From Candidatus Woesearchaeota archaeon (GTDB taxonomy: Archaea; Nanobdellota; Nanobdellia; Pacearchaeales; GW2011-AR1), in the NCBI GenBank assembly GCA_964497435.1, contig CAZCCD010000004.1:14501-23588 (forward strand): 9,088 bases of DNA, given 5' to 3'. The translations under genes were made by a program, and so were the position numbers. Positions 134 to 7,544 of the stretch are shown piece by piece. The notes beneath the pieces are model-generated. The model was not told where the DNA came from, ran no database searches, and saw only the letters and a program-made list of their open reading frames with translations. How positions within the stretch are numbered: position 1 is the stretch's first letter; each line of letters opens with the position of its first letter.

Positions 134-3100
134 CTATTTTTTCTTCTCTTCCACTTTTAGTTGGAGCTTAAACCCAACCATCTTCTTGATTTCTTCAACA
201 CACTTTGGGTTTAAAAGAGTCATTAAACCAGCTGGCTCTTCGTTGCTTAATATGCTTTTAAGAATTCTCCTCATTATTTTCCCTGAACGAGTTTTAGGGA
301 GATCATTAACAAAATAAACTTTTTGAGGCCTTGATGTAGGGCCTAGAGTCTTGTCAACATGGTGTTTTATTTCTTGTTCTAACTTTTCTGAAGGTTTTCC
401 GCTTTTTAACACAACAAAGGCAATAGGAGTCTGGCCCTTTATTGGATCTGGAATAGGGACAACTGCAGATTCATTTACAAATTTACTACTATCTATTGAA
501 TTTTCAAGTTCTGCTGTTGATAATCTATGGCCTGCGACTTTCATTACATCATCTGTTCTTCCAGTTATTCTAAAATAACTTTCTTTCATTACTGCTCCAT
601 CACTAGTATCATATTTTCCTTTAAATGTTTTCCAGTATGTTTCTACATATTTTTCATGGTTGTTATAAACTCCATGCAGCATTCCTGGAGCGAAGGGCGA
701 GAGTTGAACTAAAAATCCTTGGGAAGATTTTTTTCCATTTTTATCTAGGATTGTATGTCTTGTTCCTGGGAAGGATTTTCCAGCAACTGTTGGAATAAAA
801 GGACCAATGCCAGGAAGAGTGTTTATAATAGTGCCTCCTGTTTCTGTCTGCCACCACGTGTCTAGTATAGGACATTTACTCTTTCCAATATTTTTGAAAT
901 ACCACATCCACGCTTTTTCATCTATTGGCTCTCCAACTGTCCCGAGAATTCTTAATGAATTTAATTTGTGTTTCTTTAGATATTTTTCACCCCATTTCAT
1001 GAACATTCTTATTGCTGTAGGTGCTGTATAAAAAACAGAAACTTTGTATTTATCTATGATTTGCCACCATCTTGAAGGATTTGGAAAATCAGGAGTTCCT
1101 TCGTAAATTAGAGTTGTTGCTCCATTTAACAATGGGCCGTAAAAAGCGTATGTATGCCCTGTAATCCAGCCAATGTCAGCTGTGCACCACATAATATCAG
1201 AGTCTTTAATATCGAAAACCCATTTTGCTGTTAGATAAGCTTGGACAGCATATCCTCCTGTATCATGGACAATTCCTTTTGGTTTGCCAGTTGTATTGTG
1301 TGTAATAATTCCATTGACAATATAATTATGATTTTTTTCGGCTGTTAAATCATAAACAAAATCATATTCGTTATCTATTTTTTCTATTTCTAAAATTTTT
1401 TCTAGAATAGCATTTTTAAACTCTAATAATTTTTGAATTTTTTTTCTAATTATCTTTAATTTTTCTAATTTTTCTTTATTAGTTTCTGTTTCAATTTTGT
1501 TATCTAAAAATTCTTTAATTATTTTTAACCCTTTTTTATCAGTTTGATTGCTATGAACAAATTTGGTGATTTTGCTAAAATCCCCTTTCCAATCTACTTT
1601 AATAGTTTTTGTAATTTCTTTTAGAAGAGAAAATAAAGGAAATCTATCTTTTGAAAATATTTTTTTTGAAGATAATTTCTCCACTAAACTATTAAGCTTC
1701 ATTTTTTTAGCTTGATCCGAAAATCCAATTTCTTTATGAAATCTATTTAAGGATTCTCTCTCGGAAATTATGACATCTAAATAAGGAGTTTCTTTTATAA
1801 CTCTATTTCTGATTTTTCTTTCTTTGTTTATTCCATGATATACTTTAGCGATTATACCAAATCTTCTCATTAATAATTGAGAAATTCTAATCAATTCTTC
1901 ACTTGTACTTGATAATTTAATAAAAGAGTGTCCAATTGTTCCTTCTGCATCGTATAATCCTCTTAAAAACCCAGCAATACATTCTTTCTCACTTTTTTGA
2001 ATAATTTTTGGAATGTCTCTCTTATTGCTTATAGTTGCAATTTCAGGAAAATTTTCTATTATATAATTTCTAAATAAAGAACTATTAACTAGTAATCTTA
2101 ATCTTTCACTCTTTTTTCTTATATTACTTTTTACATTTAATTCTTTCAAAATTAAATTTTTGTAAGATTCTAAATTAGATATGTCCTTATCTGTAAAGAT
2201 AATGCTTCTTTTATCTAAGTGTCCATCTCCAACAAAATATCCTAAGATTTGAGCAAATTCAGAAGTTAGAAAATTCGGAATTTCTGGAATATTTTCTGGT
2301 TTATAAGTTGTTTTATTTCCATATTCTTTTTTTTCTTTTAGTTTTGGAAGTGTTTGTTTTTCTCCTTTTATATTTATGCTAGATATAACAAATATTTTAT
2401 TATTATTTAATAAATTTTTAACTTCTTTTTCAATTAGATTTCCATATTCATCTAGACTAAATAATCTGTGATTTGGAGTAAAAATAGCCTCGAATGAGGG
2501 TGTTCTTATCTTATATAAAACAGAGTTATTGGGATATTTATGAAGGTTTGTGATGTTATCTTCCATTTGTACTAAAGGATTAGAATGCATATTGACTATT
2601 TTCGGCTTAATATTTTTCTCAACTATTTCTTTTATTTTTACAATTTCTCCGTTTACTAATTGTATTAAAGAATTTGGATGACAACAGCCACTAGTATAAA
2701 GAATAAACATTGGATCTTCAGAGTTTATTATTTCTGGCTTGCAATATGTAGAGCCTTTTTCTAAAAAAGAATTAAAGTTAGTAAATTTACCAGAATAATT
2801 TCTTTTTTTATTCAATCTTGAGACAACAATAACATGTTTTATAGTTGTGCCTTTTATTGCTTTTTTTGCCTTGCTTAATAAATTTTCTTTTTCCCCTCTT
2901 CTATAATATCCATCACAAGTTATAAGGACATTTGCCTTGCAATCTTCAATTCTAGCTTTTAACGCGTCTGTTGCGAATGCAGAGAAAACAACAGAATGAA
3001 TAGCTCCAAGTCTTGTGCATGCTAGCATTGCAACTAAAGCTTCTGGAACTAAAGGAAGATAAATAGAGACAGCTTCGCCTTTTTTTACTCCAAGATCTTT

Positions 3101-3478
3101 AAGAGAGTTTGCGAATTTATTTACTTTCTCATATAATTCTCCGTAAGTTAGAATTACTGGTTTTTCATTTATAGGTTCAGGAATCCAGATTAAAGCTGGT
3201 TTGTTTGGATTTTTTAAGTGCCTATCTAAAGCATTGACGCAGAAATTTAATTTTCCTCCTTTAAACCACTCGAAGTAGGGGAGTTTTTCAACGTAAGTGT
3301 TTTTTTCTTCCCACAATTTTTCCCAGACAATGCACTCTTTTGCCTGTTCATTCCAAAACTTTACAGGAGCTTTTTCAGCTTGAGAATAAACACTAGGATT
3401 GTTTATCCAAGCTATTTTTTTCATTTCATTGCTTGGCCAGAATTTATTGCCCTTTTTTACGACGTAAGACATTTTCAC
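134..3478 (-). CDS. acs: Acetyl-CoA synthetase (AMP-forming, ANL superfamily) interrupted by an in-frame intein; predicted spliced product about 650 aa
   Basis: The 1114-aa ORF has Acs-typical N-terminal (WFKGGKLNFCVNALDRHL), core (DTWWQTETGG) and C-terminal (LPKTRSGKIMRRILK, carrying the catalytic/acetylatable Lys) motifs. The A3 motif YTSG...TTGKPKG is split by 464 aa. The track start at 3478 is GTG and lies inside a GAGGTGA Shine-Dalgarno-like sequence. The ATG two codons downstream (start at 3472, MSYVV...) is therefore the more likely initiation codon. Confidence 0.9.
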   Translation of the reverse strand: MKMSYVVKKGNKFWPSNEMKKIAWINNPSVYSQAEKAPVKFWNEQAKECIVWEKLWEEKNTYVEKLPYFEWFKGGKLNFCVNALDRHLKNPNKPALIWIPEPINEKPVILTYGELYEKVNKFANSLKDLGVKKGEAVSIYLPLVPEALVAMLACTRLGAIHSVVFSAFATDALKARIEDCKANVLITCDGYYRRGEKENLLSKAKKAIKGTTIKHVIVVSRLNKKRNYSGKFTNFNSFLEKGSTYCKPEIINSEDPMFILYTSGCCHPNSLIQLVNGEIVKIKEIVEKNIKPKIVNMHSNPLVQMEDNITNLHKYPNNSVLYKIRTPSFEAIFTPNHRLFSLDEYGNLIEKEVKNLLNNNKIFVISSINIKGEKQTLPKLKEKKEYGNKTTYKPENIPEIPNFLTSEFAQILGYFVGDGHLDKRSIIFTDKDISNLESYKNLILKELNVKSNIRKKSERLRLLVNSSLFRNYIIENFPEIATISNKRDIPKIIQKSEKECIAGFLRGLYDAEGTIGHSFIKLSSTSEELIRISQLLMRRFGIIAKVYHGINKERKIRNRVIKETPYLDVIISERESLNRFHKEIGFSDQAKKMKLNSLVEKLSSKKIFSKDRFPLFSLLKEITKTIKVDWKGDFSKITKFVHSNQTDKKGLKIIKEFLDNKIETETNKEKLEKLKIIRKKIQKLLEFKNAILEKILEIEKIDNEYDFVYDLTAEKNHNYIVNGIITHNTTGKPKGIVHDTGGYAVQAYLTAKWVFDIKDSDIMWCTADIGWITGHTYAFYGPLLNGATTLIYEGTPDFPNPSRWWQIIDKYKVSVFYTAPTAIRMFMKWGEKYLKKHKLNSLRILGTVGEPIDEKAWMWYFKNIGKSKCPILDTWWQTETGGTIINTLPGIGPFIPTVAGKSFPGTRHTILDKNGKKSSQGFLVQLSPFAPGMLHGVYNNHEKYVETYWKTFKGKYDTSDGAVMKESYFRITGRTDDVMKVAGHRLSTAELENSIDSSKFVNESAVVPIPDPIKGQTPIAFVVLKSGKPSEKLEQEIKHHVDKTLGPTSRPQKVYFVNDLPKTRSGKIMRRILKSILSNEEPAGLMTLLNPKCVEEIKKMVGFKLQLKVEEKKK
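1295..2686 (-). mobile_element. Intein (464 aa) with a LAGLIDADG homing-endonuclease domain, inserted in the Acs phosphate-binding loop
   Basis: The junctions read YTSG|CCHPNS... and ...NGIITHN|TTGKPKG, giving Cys1, a penultimate His, a terminal Asn and Thr+1. Block B TxxH is present (TPNH). The two LAGLIDADG motifs are LGYFVGDGHL and IAGFLRGLYDAEGTI. Block F/G is DFVYDLTAEKNHNYIVNGIITHN. Removing it restores the canonical YTSGTTGKPKG. Hand counts of sample 60-nt lines give about 15% GC inside the intein (lines 1441, 2101) versus about 42% in the exteins (lines 1141, 3001). Confidence 0.88.
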
Positions 3479-3553: not shown

Positions 3554-3832
3554 TTATTTGGATTTTTTCTTTTTTATAAGATAAATAATTGACGAGAATA
3601 TTATATAATAAATGATGAAATTTATAATGAAGGATAAAGTTACTACGAAATAAGCTGGCGAATTATAGGAAGAGGTAATAAAAAAGAATGGTGCGGATAG
3701 AAGAAAAAAAACAAAAACAATCATTGAATTGCCATTAAAAAGATTTATAGAGATTATAATTAATAATACAAAATACACTATCGTAAAAATCTTCTTTGGT
3801 TTATCAAATCTTATAAACTCTTTAAATGTCAT
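3554..3832 (-). CDS. Small hydrophobic membrane protein (92 aa, about 3 predicted TM segments, lysine-rich C-terminus)
   Basis: The ORF has long hydrophobic runs (IFTIVYFVLLIIISINLF, MIVFVFFLLSAPFFFI, YFVVTLSFIINFIIYYIIFSSIIYLI). Its ATG overlaps the upstream CYTH stop in an ATGA (3829-3832), which implies translational coupling. No family was recognised. Confidence 0.5.
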   Translation of the reverse strand: MTFKEFIRFDKPKKIFTIVYFVLLIIISINLFNGNSMIVFVFFLLSAPFFFITSSYNSPAYFVVTLSFIINFIIYYIIFSSIIYLIKKKKSK

Positions 3833-4425
3833 CTTACTTTTAAGAATTTCTTTTTCTCTTTAGTTCCTTTATACCAAAGCATTTTTGTATAGCCTGTATT
3901 GTCAATTTGAGAAGGTCTTATCTTAAGCTCTTTTATGACTGCCCTTATTTTGTTTCTTGCTGTTTTAATGTCACTTGGCTGGCATAAGTATTCTATTTCT
4001 AAGAAGTATCCGAGATGCTTTACGTTATTTATTTCTATTGAAACTTTCTTGTCTTTCTTCCATTGATATGTTTCATTGTGTTTTATTTTCTTTACCCATT
4101 CTTTAAAACCTAAATCCATGAATAAAGCCAAAATATCTTCGACTTCGTCTTTTTCATGAAGTGTGAATTCAAATTCCTGTTTGACGACAATGTCTTTTGT
4201 CCACAAATTCACGAGCCATTTTTTGAAATTAACCTCAAATTTGTCTTTCATAGCCCTTATTCTGAATGCTTTTTTAGGATAATCTTGATTGTTTTGTATT
4301 GCAAAATAATCGTCAGCCTTTGTTCCTTCTTTTTCAAACACAGCTATCTCTTTTATCCTTTTTTTAAATTCAGGAACTTCAGAATCATTTAGTTTTATTT
4401 TTGTTTCAACTTCAAGCCATACCAT
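3829..4425 (-). CDS. CYTH-domain protein (CyaB-type class IV adenylyl cyclase / triphosphate tunnel metalloenzyme family), about 198 aa
   Basis: Starting at the internal ATG (4423-4425) the protein begins MVWLEVETKIKL, which carries the diagnostic ExExK motif. An RxR strand follows (AFRIRAM), and GYFLEIEY lies near the C-terminus. GGAGGTG sits 7 nt upstream of this ATG. The 42 codons upstream in the track ORF (to 4551) read through a GC-rich structured region and are probably not coding. Confidence 0.75.
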   Translation of the reverse strand: MVWLEVETKIKLNDSEVPEFKKRIKEIAVFEKEGTKADDYFAIQNNQDYPKKAFRIRAMKDKFEVNFKKWLVNLWTKDIVVKQEFEFTLHEKDEVEDILALFMDLGFKEWVKKIKHNETYQWKKDKKVSIEINNVKHLGYFLEIEYLCQPSDIKTARNKIRAVIKELKIRPSQIDNTGYTKMLWYKGTKEKKKFLKVR

Positions 4426-4440
4426 TAAAAGACACCTCCG

Positions 4441-4626
4441 GTTTCTTTTATAAACTTCCCTTACGGGACAGTGGGTTTTCACAATCCAGCAACCTGAAGA
4501 CAACCTGCGGTTTTCTCTAACTCGCAACCTCTCTCGTTGTGAGTTCAGCAATTTGTCTCGCGAAATTGCTCACACACACTTTCCCTCCAATAGTTGCCTC
4601 CGATGGATTCGGATTTAAAAACCTCT
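4441..4626 (-). ncRNA. Candidate structured ncRNA or structured leader of unknown class (GC-rich island)
   Basis: This stretch is visibly GC-enriched against an AT-rich background. A TTTATAAAA TATA-like box lies upstream on the minus strand at about 4657-4665. Local helices read on the minus strand are listed here. First, CCGA-AUCCA-UCGG (4600-4612). Second, an 8-bp stem AGCAAUUU/AAAUUGCU (4547-4570) extended by UGUG/CACA. Third, UGCG/CGCA (4506-4526). Fourth, a GNRA hairpin UCCC-GUAA-GGGA (4457-4468). The ends could also pair, GGUUU (about 4620) with AAACC (about 4441). The strand was chosen from G-U pairing potential and the promoter position. Confidence 0.35.
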
Positions 4627-4720: not shown

Positions 4721-5875
4721 ATGGGGTTTGATTTTATTGTTCTTGGAGCTACGGGCATACAAGGGAGAATTGTTACTCGAGATCTATTGGAAAATGGTTA
4801 TAGTGTTTTAATGTGTGGGAGAGATAAATCAAGAATTCTACATTTATTAAAAAAATTTAAAAAAACTTATTTTAAGTATATTGAAGCAAGAAAAATATCT
4901 ACAATTGTTAATGCTATTAAAAATTCTAAATCAAATATAGTTATTAATTGTATAGAAGGAAATTGGAATCTTAATGTATTAAACGCATGTCTAAAAACGG
5001 GAGTTCACTCTGTTGATTTAGGATCTGATATTCCAATGACAAAAAAACAATTGGCTAAAGATAAAGTGCTTAAAAAGAAAAACTTAATTCATATAACAGG
5101 AATTGGTTCTGTTCCAGGAATAGGTAATATAATGTTAAGACACATTGTAGATAAGTTTGATAAAATAGATGGAATAGATGTGGGGTTTGCATGGGACTCA
5201 AACATAAAAGAATTTGTCGTTCCTTTTTCAATACAAAGTATAATAGAAGAATTTACTGCTCCTGCCCCATTTATTCATCATAAAAAAATAGTTAAAATAA
5301 AACCACTTAACTCAATTGTTAAGTGTTATCATAGGGCTATTGGAAAAGAGAAACAGTTCAATGTTGGTCATCATCCAGAAACCTATACTTTTTATAGCTA
5401 TTGTAAAAATAAAGGAATAGAAAATGTTAGATTTTTTGCAGGCTTTCCAGACCACTCTTTTGAAAAAATAAATAGCATGATACAATTAGGTTTTGGAAGT
5501 AAAAAAGAAATTAATTTTAAAGGAAAAAAAACAAAACCCATAGAATTTCTTACAGAAGTAATGAAAAGAATAAAGATGCCAAAAGGATATACTGAAACAG
5601 AAAACCTTTGGGTTGAAATATCGGGAAGAAAGAACAATAAAAAAAAGAAAATTCTTATGGAGTGCATTGCGCCAACATTAAAAGGTTGGGAAGATGCTGG
5701 ATGCAACATTGATACAGGAATGCCAGCAAGTATTCTAGCCCAAATGATAAAAAAAGGAGTTATTAATCAATCAGGAAGTTATTCACCAGAATACATAGTG
5801 TCGCCAGAACCATTTTTTAAGGAACTAAGAAAAAGAGAAATGGTTGTTCTGGAGAATGGAAAGAGGATAAATTGA
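4721..5875 (+). CDS. Saccharopine dehydrogenase-family NAD(P)-dependent oxidoreductase (paralog 1, 384 aa)
   Basis: There is an N-terminal Rossmann motif (VLGATGIQGRIV) and a central ITGIGSVPGIGNIM motif resembling the G-x-x-PG-x-x-N signature of the SDH / carboxynorspermidine dehydrogenase family. A TATA-like TTTTAAATA lies about 24 nt upstream, suggesting a leaderless mRNA. The specific substrate cannot be assigned. Confidence 0.7.
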   Translation: MGFDFIVLGATGIQGRIVTRDLLENGYSVLMCGRDKSRILHLLKKFKKTYFKYIEARKISTIVNAIKNSKSNIVINCIEGNWNLNVLNACLKTGVHSVDLGSDIPMTKKQLAKDKVLKKKNLIHITGIGSVPGIGNIMLRHIVDKFDKIDGIDVGFAWDSNIKEFVVPFSIQSIIEEFTAPAPFIHHKKIVKIKPLNSIVKCYHRAIGKEKQFNVGHHPETYTFYSYCKNKGIENVRFFAGFPDHSFEKINSMIQLGFGSKKEINFKGKKTKPIEFLTEVMKRIKMPKGYTETENLWVEISGRKNNKKKKILMECIAPTLKGWEDAGCNIDTGMPASILAQMIKKGVINQSGSYSPEYIVSPEPFFKELRKREMVVLENGKRIN

Positions 5876-5876
5876 A

Positions 5877-7049
5877 ATGAAAGTATTGATAATGGGGTAT
5901 GGTTCTGTAGGAAAGGTTTTATCAAAATTATTGTTAAAAGAAAAAAGCATTAAGAGAATAATTTGCTGTGATTTGAACATTAAAGAAAAAAAACATGGAA
6001 AGATTATATTCAAAAAAGTTGATGCTTCTCAAAAAAAGAATTTATTAGATATATTAAAAATAGAAAAACCAGATATTTTAGTTAACGTCCTTATACCGCA
6101 TTTTAATACCATCCTTTTAGAATGCTGTCTTACATCAAAAGTAAATTATATTGATACTGCTTCCTATTGGAACTTTGATACAAATCAAAATTCACAAAGC
6201 CCTTATCTTGTAGAGCAATTAAATTATAACGAAGGCTTCAAAAAAAATAAGATAATTGGTTTAATAAATTCAGGTGCATCTCCTGGGCTAACAAATCTTC
6301 TAGCAAGAGAAGTTTCAGAAAAGCTGAATGAAATTGACTCAATAAAAATTAGGCTTGTTGAAGATACAAGAAGCGACAAACTATATTTTCCCTGGAGCGT
6401 TGAATGGCTTCTTGATGAAATGAATTGGGAGCCTCTCGTATACAGAAAAGGAAAATTTAAGTTGGCTAAGAGATTTTCAGAAGAGGAAGATTTTAATTTT
6501 TTTGAACCATTTGGAGTAAAAAGAACAGTTTTAGTTGGACAAGAAGAAATAGGTACAATACCTCTTTATATAAAATTAAAAAATGCAGATATAAAACTAT
6601 ATGATAGTCAAAGTGAAATTGCCAAATTCTTGTTTAAATTGGGATTAATTTCTGATGATGAAATAAAAATAGACAATGTTGAAATAAACCCCAAAGTATT
6701 TTTATCTAAATTGCTTGAAAAGGACAATAAACACATTCCAGATAAGTGGGAAATAAAGAATGCTCAATTTGGTCTTGCTGTAATTGGTGAAGGTAAAAAA
6801 AATAATAAAAAAAACAGGCTTGTCTATTCTGTTGCTTTTCCAAAAGAAAAAGATATTGACAAATTAAATTTAGGTGCAAACTTTATTTCTTATCCAACTG
6901 CATTAATGTTAAAACTATTTATTCTTGGAATTTCAAAAATAAAAAAATTTGGGGTATTTCCCCCAGAAGGACTTGATAGAAAAATTCGTGAAGAAATTTT
7001 AGAAAGCTTAAAAAAAGAGATGATAAAAATAAAATTTCAGACAATCTAA
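5877..7049 (+). CDS. Saccharopine dehydrogenase-family NAD(P)-dependent oxidoreductase (paralog 2, 390 aa)
   Basis: The motifs are VLIMGYGSVGKV (Rossmann) and NSGASPGLTNLLARE (family signature). The length is typical for the family. The ATG comes 1 nt after the upstream stop, and a GAGGAT SD-like sequence lies inside the upstream gene, so the two genes form an operon. Confidence 0.75.
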   Translation: MKVLIMGYGSVGKVLSKLLLKEKSIKRIICCDLNIKEKKHGKIIFKKVDASQKKNLLDILKIEKPDILVNVLIPHFNTILLECCLTSKVNYIDTASYWNFDTNQNSQSPYLVEQLNYNEGFKKNKIIGLINSGASPGLTNLLAREVSEKLNEIDSIKIRLVEDTRSDKLYFPWSVEWLLDEMNWEPLVYRKGKFKLAKRFSEEEDFNFFEPFGVKRTVLVGQEEIGTIPLYIKLKNADIKLYDSQSEIAKFLFKLGLISDDEIKIDNVEINPKVFLSKLLEKDNKHIPDKWEIKNAQFGLAVIGEGKKNNKKNRLVYSVAFPKEKDIDKLNLGANFISYPTALMLKLFILGISKIKKFGVFPPEGLDRKIREEILESLKKEMIKIKFQTI

Positions 7050-7138: not shown

Positions 7139-7263
7139 TTACGCCCCGTCCTACTTGCGACCTTGCTCGTTATTGATTCAGATTGTCTTCGCAAAATCGC
7201 TCGGATTCGAAATTAAACTTTCTGGAGTTACGCGAACCTCTATGCCATTTCCAATGGCATTCA
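7139..7263 (-). other. Conserved structured 3' module A, directly downstream of tRNA-Glu and ending in a repeat of the tRNA 3' acceptor strand
   Basis: Read on the minus strand, the module starts with an 8-bp hairpin ATGCCATT-GGA-AATGGCAT. Next comes the invariant 13-mer GGTTCGCGTAACT (7226-7238), then TTTCGAATCCGA. A stem UUGCGA (7189-7194) / UCGCAA (7155-7160) follows. The module ends in GGACGGGGCGTAA (7139-7151), which matches the tRNA 3' end GGACAGGGCGTGA (7261-7273) at 11 of 13 positions. A GTAATACCATTAC hairpin and a T-run follow. The module is homologous to 8120-8240. Confidence 0.45.
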
Positions 7264-7519
7264 CGCCCTGTCCGAGATTCGAACTCGGGTCACGGCCGTT
7301 CTCTAAGCGCGGTGAAAACCGCGATTTGAAGTTCTTTTGGAACTTCTTTACCTCTCAAAAATTCTCTGAGGCTTAAATAAAAAGCCTGTCCTAAGAGGAC
7401 GCGAGTCATTGTCTCGACGACTATACTCATGCAATTTAATTAAGTTGAGAGGGCCGCATTCCTAGCCTCCCATATAGATTTTACTCCAAAATAGGATTTG
7501 GCCTCTGAACTAACAGGGC
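7264..7519 (-). tRNA. tRNA-Glu (anticodon CUC) with two introns: 36 nt in the D-loop (21/22) and 147 nt at the canonical 37/38 site
   Basis: The exons are 7519-7498, 7461-7446 and 7298-7264. They assemble to a 73-nt cloverleaf: GCCCTGT TA GTTC AGAGGCCAA GAAT G CGGCC CTCTCAC GGCCG TGAC CCGAG TTCGAAT CTCGG ACAGGGC G. Acceptor, anticodon and T stems all pair perfectly. Both introns sit in BHB motifs. Intron 1 has central helix GGCC/GGCU with bulges AA|A and AG|G. Intron 2 has central helix CUCU/AGAG with bulges CA|A and AA|C. No CCA is encoded. Confidence 0.78.
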
Positions 7520-7544
7520 GTCTAGGAAGAATAAAAGAAATTCA

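Follow-up and report, generated by a model that had tools for sequence, protein, structure and literature searches.

A predicted self-splicing homing intein in the A3 phosphate loop of an archaeal acetyl-CoA synthetase

An intein within the phosphate loop of Acs

The closest structurally characterised relatives of the element described here are the inteins TliVMA and PhoVMA (7QSS, 7QST), PI-PfuI, PI-TkoII and PI-SceI (1VDE), in all of which the protein-splicing (Hint) domain is interrupted by a LAGLIDADG homing endonuclease with two motifs. A bias of inteins towards ATP-binding proteins and sites is reported in a 2015 survey (PMC4760082). Inteins also occur in non-replicative enzymes, namely GlmS/GF-6P, phosphoenolpyruvate synthase and UDP-glucose dehydrogenase, and in P-loops. 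Here we describe a stretch of 9,088 nucleotides from Candidatus Woesearchaeota archaeon (assembly GCA_964497435.1, contig CAZCCD010000004.1, positions 14,501 to 23,588), hereafter referred to as the window, whose acs gene encodes an AMP-forming acetyl-CoA synthetase (Acs). According to profile and structure-based comparisons, the A3 phosphate loop of this enzyme is split between Gly and Ser/Thr, YTSG/[ST]TGxPKG, by a class-1 intein (here and below, a slash within a motif or sequence marks the junction). Overall we assign a probability of roughly 0.85 to the interpretation that this element is a self-splicing homing intein which originated once at the acs site and subsequently spread. That it is an intein which splices we hold with higher confidence than this interpretation as a whole.

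The preliminary description of the window had located a LAGLIDADG intein of 464 residues at positions 1295 to 2686, between YTSG and TTGKPKG, and these coordinates proved exact (Table 1). The open reading frame (ORF) of the precursor comprises 3345 nucleotides including the stop codon and is uninterrupted in a genome of 30% GC. In the NCBI entry of the protein (P0001) an alternative start is used, the ATG at 3472 two codons downstream of the GTG, which yields 1112 residues and 127.6 kDa. YTSG occupies residues 261 to 264 of the precursor and TTGKPKG the stretch from residue 729 onwards, leaving 464 residues in between.

Profile searches identify the host protein as AMP-forming Acs, a member of the ANL superfamily. 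The unspliced precursor matches the acetate--CoA ligase models in two stretches, whereas the 650-residue product spliced in silico matches TIGR02188 in a single one with 794.9 bits (cut-off 724.95) and, in addition, NF001208 with 810.6 bits (cut-off 657). Among solved structures the spliced product finds its best match in Acs of Salmonella enterica (2P2Q/1PG4, E = 2.5e-171). The two align gaplessly over the junction ...FILYTSG-[ST]TGKPKG..., so that the colinearity of the product with Acs, which the preliminary description implied, is borne out. Counted along this alignment, the insertion point lies at Gly266/Ser267 of the S. enterica enzyme within the TSGSTGKPKG loop. The predicted ligated A3 loop, LYTSGTTGKPKG, is the same sequence as that found in the intein-free relatives P0007 and P0011 and fits the pattern [YF]TSG[ST]TGxPKG. 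Thr+1, the residue following the intein, is itself a native residue of this loop and is replaced by Ser in some relatives. The placement in the A3 loop fits the bias towards ATP-binding sites reported in the 2015 survey mentioned above, and likewise the spread of inteins between P-loops of unrelated proteins which has been proposed (PMC10710043). With the inteins of GlmS/GF-6P, phosphoenolpyruvate synthase, UDP-glucose dehydrogenase and P-loops it shares the location in a nucleotide-phosphate-binding loop of a non-replicative enzyme. The A3 loop of these adenylate-forming ANL enzymes must, however, be distinguished from a Walker A P-loop.

The intein nature of the insert is supported by its profile matches and by the conservation of its catalytic residues. 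Run on the insert alone, Pfam returns Intein_splicing (PF14890) with 84.5 bits (cut-off 35.8, E = 9e-24, residues 10 to 464) as well as LAGLIDADG_3 (PF14528) with 87.2 bits in two stretches (E = 8.9e-25, above the curated cut-off), both far outside the range of chance matches. The NCBIfam models intein_Nterm and intein_Cterm (TIGR01445 and TIGR01443) both score above their cut-offs, and partial matches are obtained to the NCBIfam models of intein-bearing RNA polymerase A'', ribonucleotide reductase, RFC, DnaB, VMA, GyrA and RtcB. An alignment of ten Acs inteins reveals Cys1, Thr70, His73, Asp154, Asp446, His463 and Asn464 to be invariant and Glu248 to be nearly so. All signatures listed in the preliminary description, i.e. 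Cys1, TxxH, two LAGLIDADG motifs with their acidic residues, the terminal HN and Thr+1, are present. The sequence of blocks F and G (intein residues 442 to 464) reads DFVYDLTAEKNHNYIVNGIITHN and is directly followed by Thr+1.

The AlphaFold2 model of the intein, calculated with the ten aligned Acs inteins as input, has a mean predicted local distance difference test score (pLDDT) of 88.5 and a predicted template modelling score of 0.89. It consists of beta-rich ends (residues 1 to 101 and 426 to 463), an alpha/beta core (residues 142 to 319) and a set of helices (residues 325 to 421). The top PDB match of this model in Foldseek is the TliVMA intein (7QSS, E = 1.3e-25, template modelling (TM) scores 0.69/0.74), further matches being PI-PfuI (1DQ3), PhoVMA, PI-TkoII (2CW7) and PI-SceI, and then the free-standing endonuclease I-DmoI, many entries of which match the endonuclease fold at E about 1e-6 with target TM scores of 0.61 to 0.73. 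Sequence and model together characterise the insert as a canonical class-1 intein into which a monomeric LAGLIDADG homing endonuclease with two motifs is embedded. With the solved inteins named above it has Cys1, TxxH and HN as well as the fold in common (Foldseek E values from 1e-25 to 1e-11, TM scores up to 0.74). In contrast, sequence identity to them amounts to only 12-18%, their hosts are V-ATPase, ribonucleotide reductase and DNA polymerase rather than Acs, and the Acs inteins feature a Lys-rich helical domain of their own, which follows the endonuclease core and precedes the C-terminal Hint strands.

The gene encodes a 127.6-kDa precursor whose phosphate-binding loop is split by 464 residues and which would be inactive because of this disruption of the A3 loop. 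From the intact catalytic residues we infer that it would splice itself through an N-S acyl shift at Cys1, transesterification to Thr+1, cyclisation of Asn464 and a final O-N shift, giving rise to a colinear Acs of 73.5 kDa and a free intein of 54.1 kDa. The latter, judging from its intact acidic residues, would cut an intein-less acs gene at the DNA encoding the A3 loop and be copied into it by repair (homing). Were the insert unable to splice, the gene would specify a disrupted, inactive Acs and would effectively be a pseudogene. We regard this as very improbable since the ORF is uninterrupted, all splicing residues are intact, the exteins are strongly conserved, as indicated by the TIGR02188 score after removal of the intein, and the same arrangement is kept in about 20 other alleles (see below). 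Admittedly, the window originates from a metagenome-type assembly in which an Acs gene might have been joined erroneously to an unrelated intein gene. Yet both junctions are in frame and located exactly at the intein boundaries, and independent assemblies of numerous samples and projects (NCBI, JGI, ENA, Logan) show an identical junction. Due to this recurrence of the allele in independent assemblies an artefact is ruled out, and we rate its probability as negligible.

Table 1. Features of the intein-containing acs gene in the window
Feature	Position	Strand	Remarks
acs precursor ORF	134-3478	minus	1114 residues from GTG at 3478; stop codon 134-136
Acs N-extein	2687-3478	minus	ACAS_N and first part of AMP-binding domain; C-terminal end DPMFILYTSG
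Intein	1295-2686	minus	464 residues, 54.1 kDa, CCHPNS...IITHN
Hint splicing domain, N-terminal half (intein residues 1-110)	2357-2686	minus	Cys1 at 2684-2686; NCBIfam intein_Nterm residues 1-76 and AlphaFold model
Block B TPNH (Thr70, His73)	2468-2479	minus	Thr70, Pro71 and His73 invariant in 10 Acs inteins
Lys-rich linker (intein residues 111-137)	2276-2356	minus	low model confidence (pLDDT 55 for residues 121-130)
LAGLIDADG endonuclease core (intein residues 138-322)	1721-2275	minus	predicted from Pfam profile, AlphaFold model and Foldseek
LAGLIDADG motif 1 LGYFVGDG (intein residues 148-155)	2222-2245	minus	acidic residue Asp154
LAGLIDADG motif 2 LRGLYDAEG (intein residues 241-249)	1940-1966	minus	acidic residue Glu248
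Lys-rich helical accessory domain (intein residues 323-424)	1415-1720	minus	four predicted helices and most of a fifth, starting at residue 325
Hint domain, C-terminal half (intein residues 425-464)	1295-1414	minus	blocks F/G: Asp446, His453, His463, Asn464; intein_Cterm residues 443-464
Acs C-extein	134-1294	minus	begins with Thr+1 (TTGKPKGIVH...); rest of AMP-binding domain and AMP-binding_C

The family of Acs-site inteins and its helical domain

The intein of the window is not an isolated case. Among the best 120 Acs matches, 13 proteins including that of the window carry both intein Pfam domains, and one more intein-bearing Acs, P0133, adds to the 12 others. An exhaustive search with the intein as query against 1.84 billion representatives yielded 3346 relatives at E <= 0.001, and among the best 150 of these only P0005 and P0133 are Acs proteins. 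This search replaced a word-indexed one which, with the intein alone, had returned four weak matches and missed relatives of 60-70% identity, probably due to Lys-rich low-complexity words saturating its candidate list. Four Acs-intein loci (L003 to L006) are present in the GTDB species representatives and ten among the best 80 matches in JGI metagenomes. Nine of the latter display both junctions at the same site, while the tenth (L135) is cut by a contig end so that both junctions are not readable. Allowing for overlap, since the products of L003, L004 and some JGI loci are already among the proteins above, there are at least 20 other distinct Acs alleles which, by their sequences, carry a related intein at this site and which mostly belong to DPANN archaea where the organism is named. 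Every allele with both junctions readable follows the pattern YTSG/C...HN/[ST]TG. The preliminary description had considered an insertion allele in Acs unusual, which holds with respect to the rarity of the host protein, but not in the sense of a one-off event.

The proteins most similar to the Acs of the window are labelled Nanoarchaeota, Pacearchaeota or Woesearchaeota archaeon. Judged by these homologues, the window derives from a small-genome, DPANN-type archaeon belonging to this group. MBI1935191.1 and MBW2965573.1 from Woesearchaeota and OYT42678.1 from Aenigmarchaeota ex4484_224 harbour inteins at the same site with 35-70% identity to that of the window. These relatives fall into several size classes, some have Ser+1, and NCBI labels them only as 'acetate--CoA ligase' or 'hypothetical protein'. 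One locus, L005 (CAZJKY010000030.1), belongs to a contig of 7 kb which was assigned in binning to 'uncultured Gammaproteobacteria bacterium', and encodes an Acs with a long-type intein of 529 residues at the same site, followed by Ser+1. Probably this is a mis-binned archaeal contig; otherwise it would represent an occurrence across domains.

With respect to length, the Acs inteins form a class of 462-465 residues, to which that of the window belongs, a class of 500-538 residues with an extra segment and one degenerate form of 377 residues. A neighbour-joining tree including 30 inteins from other hosts recovers the Acs inteins as a monophyletic group with a bootstrap support of 84/100 and the short class as a clade with full support (100/100). 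The 377-residue intein is that of P0133 (1019 residues), in which GKG and DARA replace GDG and DAEG, and the second LAGLIDADG motif of P0015 (1196 residues) reads DAKG. Judged by these substitutions, both appear to be later stages of a homing-decay cycle at the Acs site, a series which homing would lead one to expect.

The difference between the short and the long class concerns the helical domain preceding the C-terminal Hint strands. In the window's intein this domain (residues 323 to 424) contains 25.5% Lys and 7.8% Glu, and its helices are predicted with mostly high confidence. The preliminary description had noted a K/E-rich, coiled-coil-like insert before block F. While the Lys-rich helical stretch is real, an equivalent of it can be aligned in every Acs intein and also in related inteins from other hosts. 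The alignment therefore identifies it as a family-wide accessory domain which is shortened in the copy of the window rather than as an insert specific to this copy. Compared to it, the long forms have some 40-75 extra residues (alignment columns 404 to 476). In the extra segment of three long forms several Pfam helix-turn-helix models match at one shared position with 15-18 bits, i.e. below threshold, while the short form of the window yields no Pfam helix-turn-helix match at all. Nor did Foldseek return any significant match for the modelled helical domain of the long type (pLDDT 80.7). That this domain has a role in DNA binding would be a guess.

Horizontal spread and the state of the endonuclease

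Comparison of inteins and exteins indicates that the intein has spread horizontally among Acs genes, as the preliminary description had suggested on the basis of GC content. The C-extein of the window is 80-81% identical to the intein-free P0007 and P0011, and its extein groups within the intein-free alleles with a bootstrap support of 91/100. P0004, P0006 and P0013, in contrast, carry inteins which are 64-70% identical to that of the window although their exteins share only 52-54% identity with it and form a separate deep clade (100 of 100 bootstraps). The short-clade inteins thereby span two Acs clades between which exteins are 50-54% and inteins 59-70% identical, intein identity reaching up to 81% within one of them. 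Since an intein normally diverges faster than its host, its better conservation across two host clades argues for horizontal movement. The long-type inteins follow the reverse pattern, with 35-41% intein identity at 57-62% extein identity. Taken together, these sequence comparisons point to an Acs-site intein that arose once, subsequently spread among divergent DPANN acs genes and decayed in some lineages.

Intein-free counterparts of the locus are also available. L001 has the same neighbouring genes as the window, and the locus of P0007, the orthologue with 80% C-extein identity, shares with it the series of a small protein resembling EF-Tu domain 2, then a CYTH protein, next a short ORF without annotation, whose product in the window is membrane-like, and finally acs. 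The intein-less acs site of L001 reads GATCCAATGTTCATACTTTACACTTCAGGA/ACAACGGGAAAACCAAAAGGAATTGTCCAC, and in four intein-free alleles the candidate target DNA is identical at 48-52 of 60 nucleotides. A possible co-conversion signature was considered and rejected: the Ser codon preceding the junction is AGT in the window compared to TCA in the closest intein-free locus, yet three further intein-free alleles use AGT as well, and the intein-bearing alleles are divided into five with AGY and seven with TCN, leaving no mark of a donor flank.

The GC contrast between intein and exteins emphasised in the preliminary description does exist, the intein being lower, but it is smaller than the stated values of about 15% versus 42%, as it amounts to 23.6% versus 35.0%. 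At third codon positions (GC3) the values are 13.6% and 25.0% (Fisher p = 2.6e-6), the former being the lowest of the window whose other ORFs range from 18 to 29%. Horizontal acquisition accordingly draws its support from the comparison of intein and extein divergence and not from these figures, which we do not accept as proof of recent import but as supporting evidence only.

Several points weigh against a mobile, self-splicing element as favoured here. Of five alleles, two (L003 and L006) show no GC3 contrast, and relaxed codon selection could bring such a contrast about as easily as recent import. The neighbour-joining tree of the inteins leaves the inner branching of the short clade unresolved (41 versus 42 of 100 bootstraps), so that the argument for transfer rests on relative divergence and not on a hard topological conflict. 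No vector has been identified, as a search of the viral contigs of IMG/VR retrieved no close relative, the best matches being of 30% identity over partial stretches plus one fragment of 52 residues at 40%. Both splicing and DNA cleavage are deduced from conserved residues. Finally, the window's intein is devoid of the long-form segment of about 40-75 residues, and if this segment binds DNA, the endonuclease could be impaired.

The last point leads to the alternative that the intein splices while its endonuclease is inactive or decaying, in which case it would persist by vertical inheritance only, as imprecise loss would destroy the A3 loop. Apart from the shortened helical domain, the clearly degenerate LAGLIDADG motifs of the relatives P0133 and P0015 would be in line with such a state, and activity is not readable from sequence. 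On the other hand, all members of the short clade retain both motifs in intact form together with Asp154 and Glu248, and the identities between the two host clades (59-70% for inteins versus 50-54% for exteins) require a fairly recent transfer by the same short form. We therefore consider this alternative unlikely and prefer the interpretation as a homing intein, within which we give the endonuclease a somewhat better than even chance of still being active.

Relatives in other hosts, novelty and further features of the window

Outside Acs, the best matches to the Acs-intein profile (260-351 bits) are P0127, P0126, P0129 and P0138, whose hosts are VWA or CobT-type proteins. These inteins are inserted into the metal ion-dependent adhesion site (MIDAS) motif DxSG/S and hence exhibit the same local junction, SG/[ST], as the Acs inteins. 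The intein of P0127 even starts with CCHP like that of Acs despite its unrelated host protein. A sister-group relationship of the VWA-site and the Acs inteins is, however, unsupported, as Acs and P0127 group together in 12 of 100 neighbour-joining bootstraps. Microhomology-mediated non-allelic homing has been proposed for Anaeramoeba, as has spread of inteins between P-loops of unrelated proteins (PMC10710043). As a hypothesis derived from the junction sequences, the Acs intein may have reached the A3 loop TSG/T non-allelically, jumping there from the MIDAS motif DxSG/S of VWA proteins by means of SG/S or SG/T microhomology. Further relatives of the intein are found in GlmS (P0136, P0162) and in P-loop ATPases. 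Related inteins are also inserted into catalytic or metal-binding motifs, namely GGQ/C of eRF1 (P0174, P0237) and HLDH/C of the beta-CASP nuclease aCPSF1 (P0132, P0137), and into PHP/EndoQ-like proteins (P0130, P0134) at SDAH/C within the PHP domain.

The N-terminus of the intein raises the question of whether it has been co-opted as a conditional switch by which splicing, and with it Acs activity, responds to redox state, metal or temperature, for instance via Cys1-Cys2-His3. Other inteins of archaea are known to splice conditionally. Cys2 is retained in nine of the ten aligned Acs inteins, generating a vicinal Cys-Cys pair at the splice nucleophile, and with its A3 loop split unspliced Acs would have to be inactive. 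Nothing in the data points to regulation, though, and the patchy distribution with intein-free closest relatives is the pattern of a selfish element rather than of a retained regulatory module. Moreover, the C-x-H-P motif is common to related inteins of unrelated hosts, most of which possess Leu or Val at position 2. We thus regard such a switch as improbable. If it were real, splicing would gate acetate activation and DPANN archaea with this allele would control a central carbon-entry enzyme post-translationally. Compared to such conditional gating, the non-allelic jump may be regarded as the better-founded idea.

Acs is a rare host and the A3 loop a rare site, while the machinery of the intein is ordinary, and our understanding of how inteins work is unchanged by it. 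In the open-access literature we came across no account of a naturally occurring Acs intein, which, within this scope, agrees with the preliminary statement that Acs is not among the classical intein hosts. The main text of the 2015 survey names no acetyl- or acyl-CoA enzyme among the hosts (PMC4760082), and a 2010 intein review does not mention Acs. Public databases, however, already tag these Acs proteins with Pfam intein domains, and JGI names one of them 'acyl-CoA synthetase/.../intein/homing endonuclease'. With the present case an adenylate-forming enzyme of the ANL superfamily and a non-Walker phosphate loop join the list of intein hosts. As to annotation, the 1112-residue "acetate--CoA ligase" would correspond to an enzyme of 648 residues plus an intein of 464 residues, and in metabolic reconstructions of DPANN archaea this Acs should be neither discarded nor mis-sized. 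The natural series of short forms that look active, long forms and degenerate ones could, in combination with intein-free orthologues from this gene neighbourhood, serve studies of homing in uncultivated archaea. Use as a splicing tool in ANL enzymes might be attempted with an intein whose Thr+1 is native to a T-S-G/T-T-G context.

Beyond acs, the window contains a GC-rich island at 7140-7530 with 40-58% GC between flanks of 18-20% GC, in which there is no ORF, no Rfam match even at E <= 1 and no tRNA according to a default scan. On the minus strand of 7263-7520, a perfect acceptor stem of 7 bp and a T-arm CCGAG-TTCGAAT-CTCGG are recognisable, and ARAGORN, with introns allowed, predicts a tRNA-Ser(GGA) interrupted behind position 38 by an intron of 182 nt. 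Intergenic DNA of the intein-free loci L001 and L002, both of which share the gene neighbours of the window, matches the segments 7263-7306 and 7360-7437 with 86-87% identity, the second segment being part of the predicted intron. On the plus strand, at 4721-5875 and 5877-7049, the window further contains a tandem pair of saccharopine-dehydrogenase-like genes (Sacchrp_dh_NADP plus Sacchrp_dh_C), flanked by the CYTH gene and the EF-Tu-D2-like gene. This pair is absent from that position in L001, where an unrelated ORF of 247 residues is present instead. The CYTH gene itself (3829-4551, minus strand) was called as a TTG-started ORF of 240 residues, of which only residues 47 to 213 constitute the CYTH domain. 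Since the domain does not begin before residue 47 and the homologues in L001 and L002 are shorter (195-197 residues), translation probably begins at an internal Met instead.

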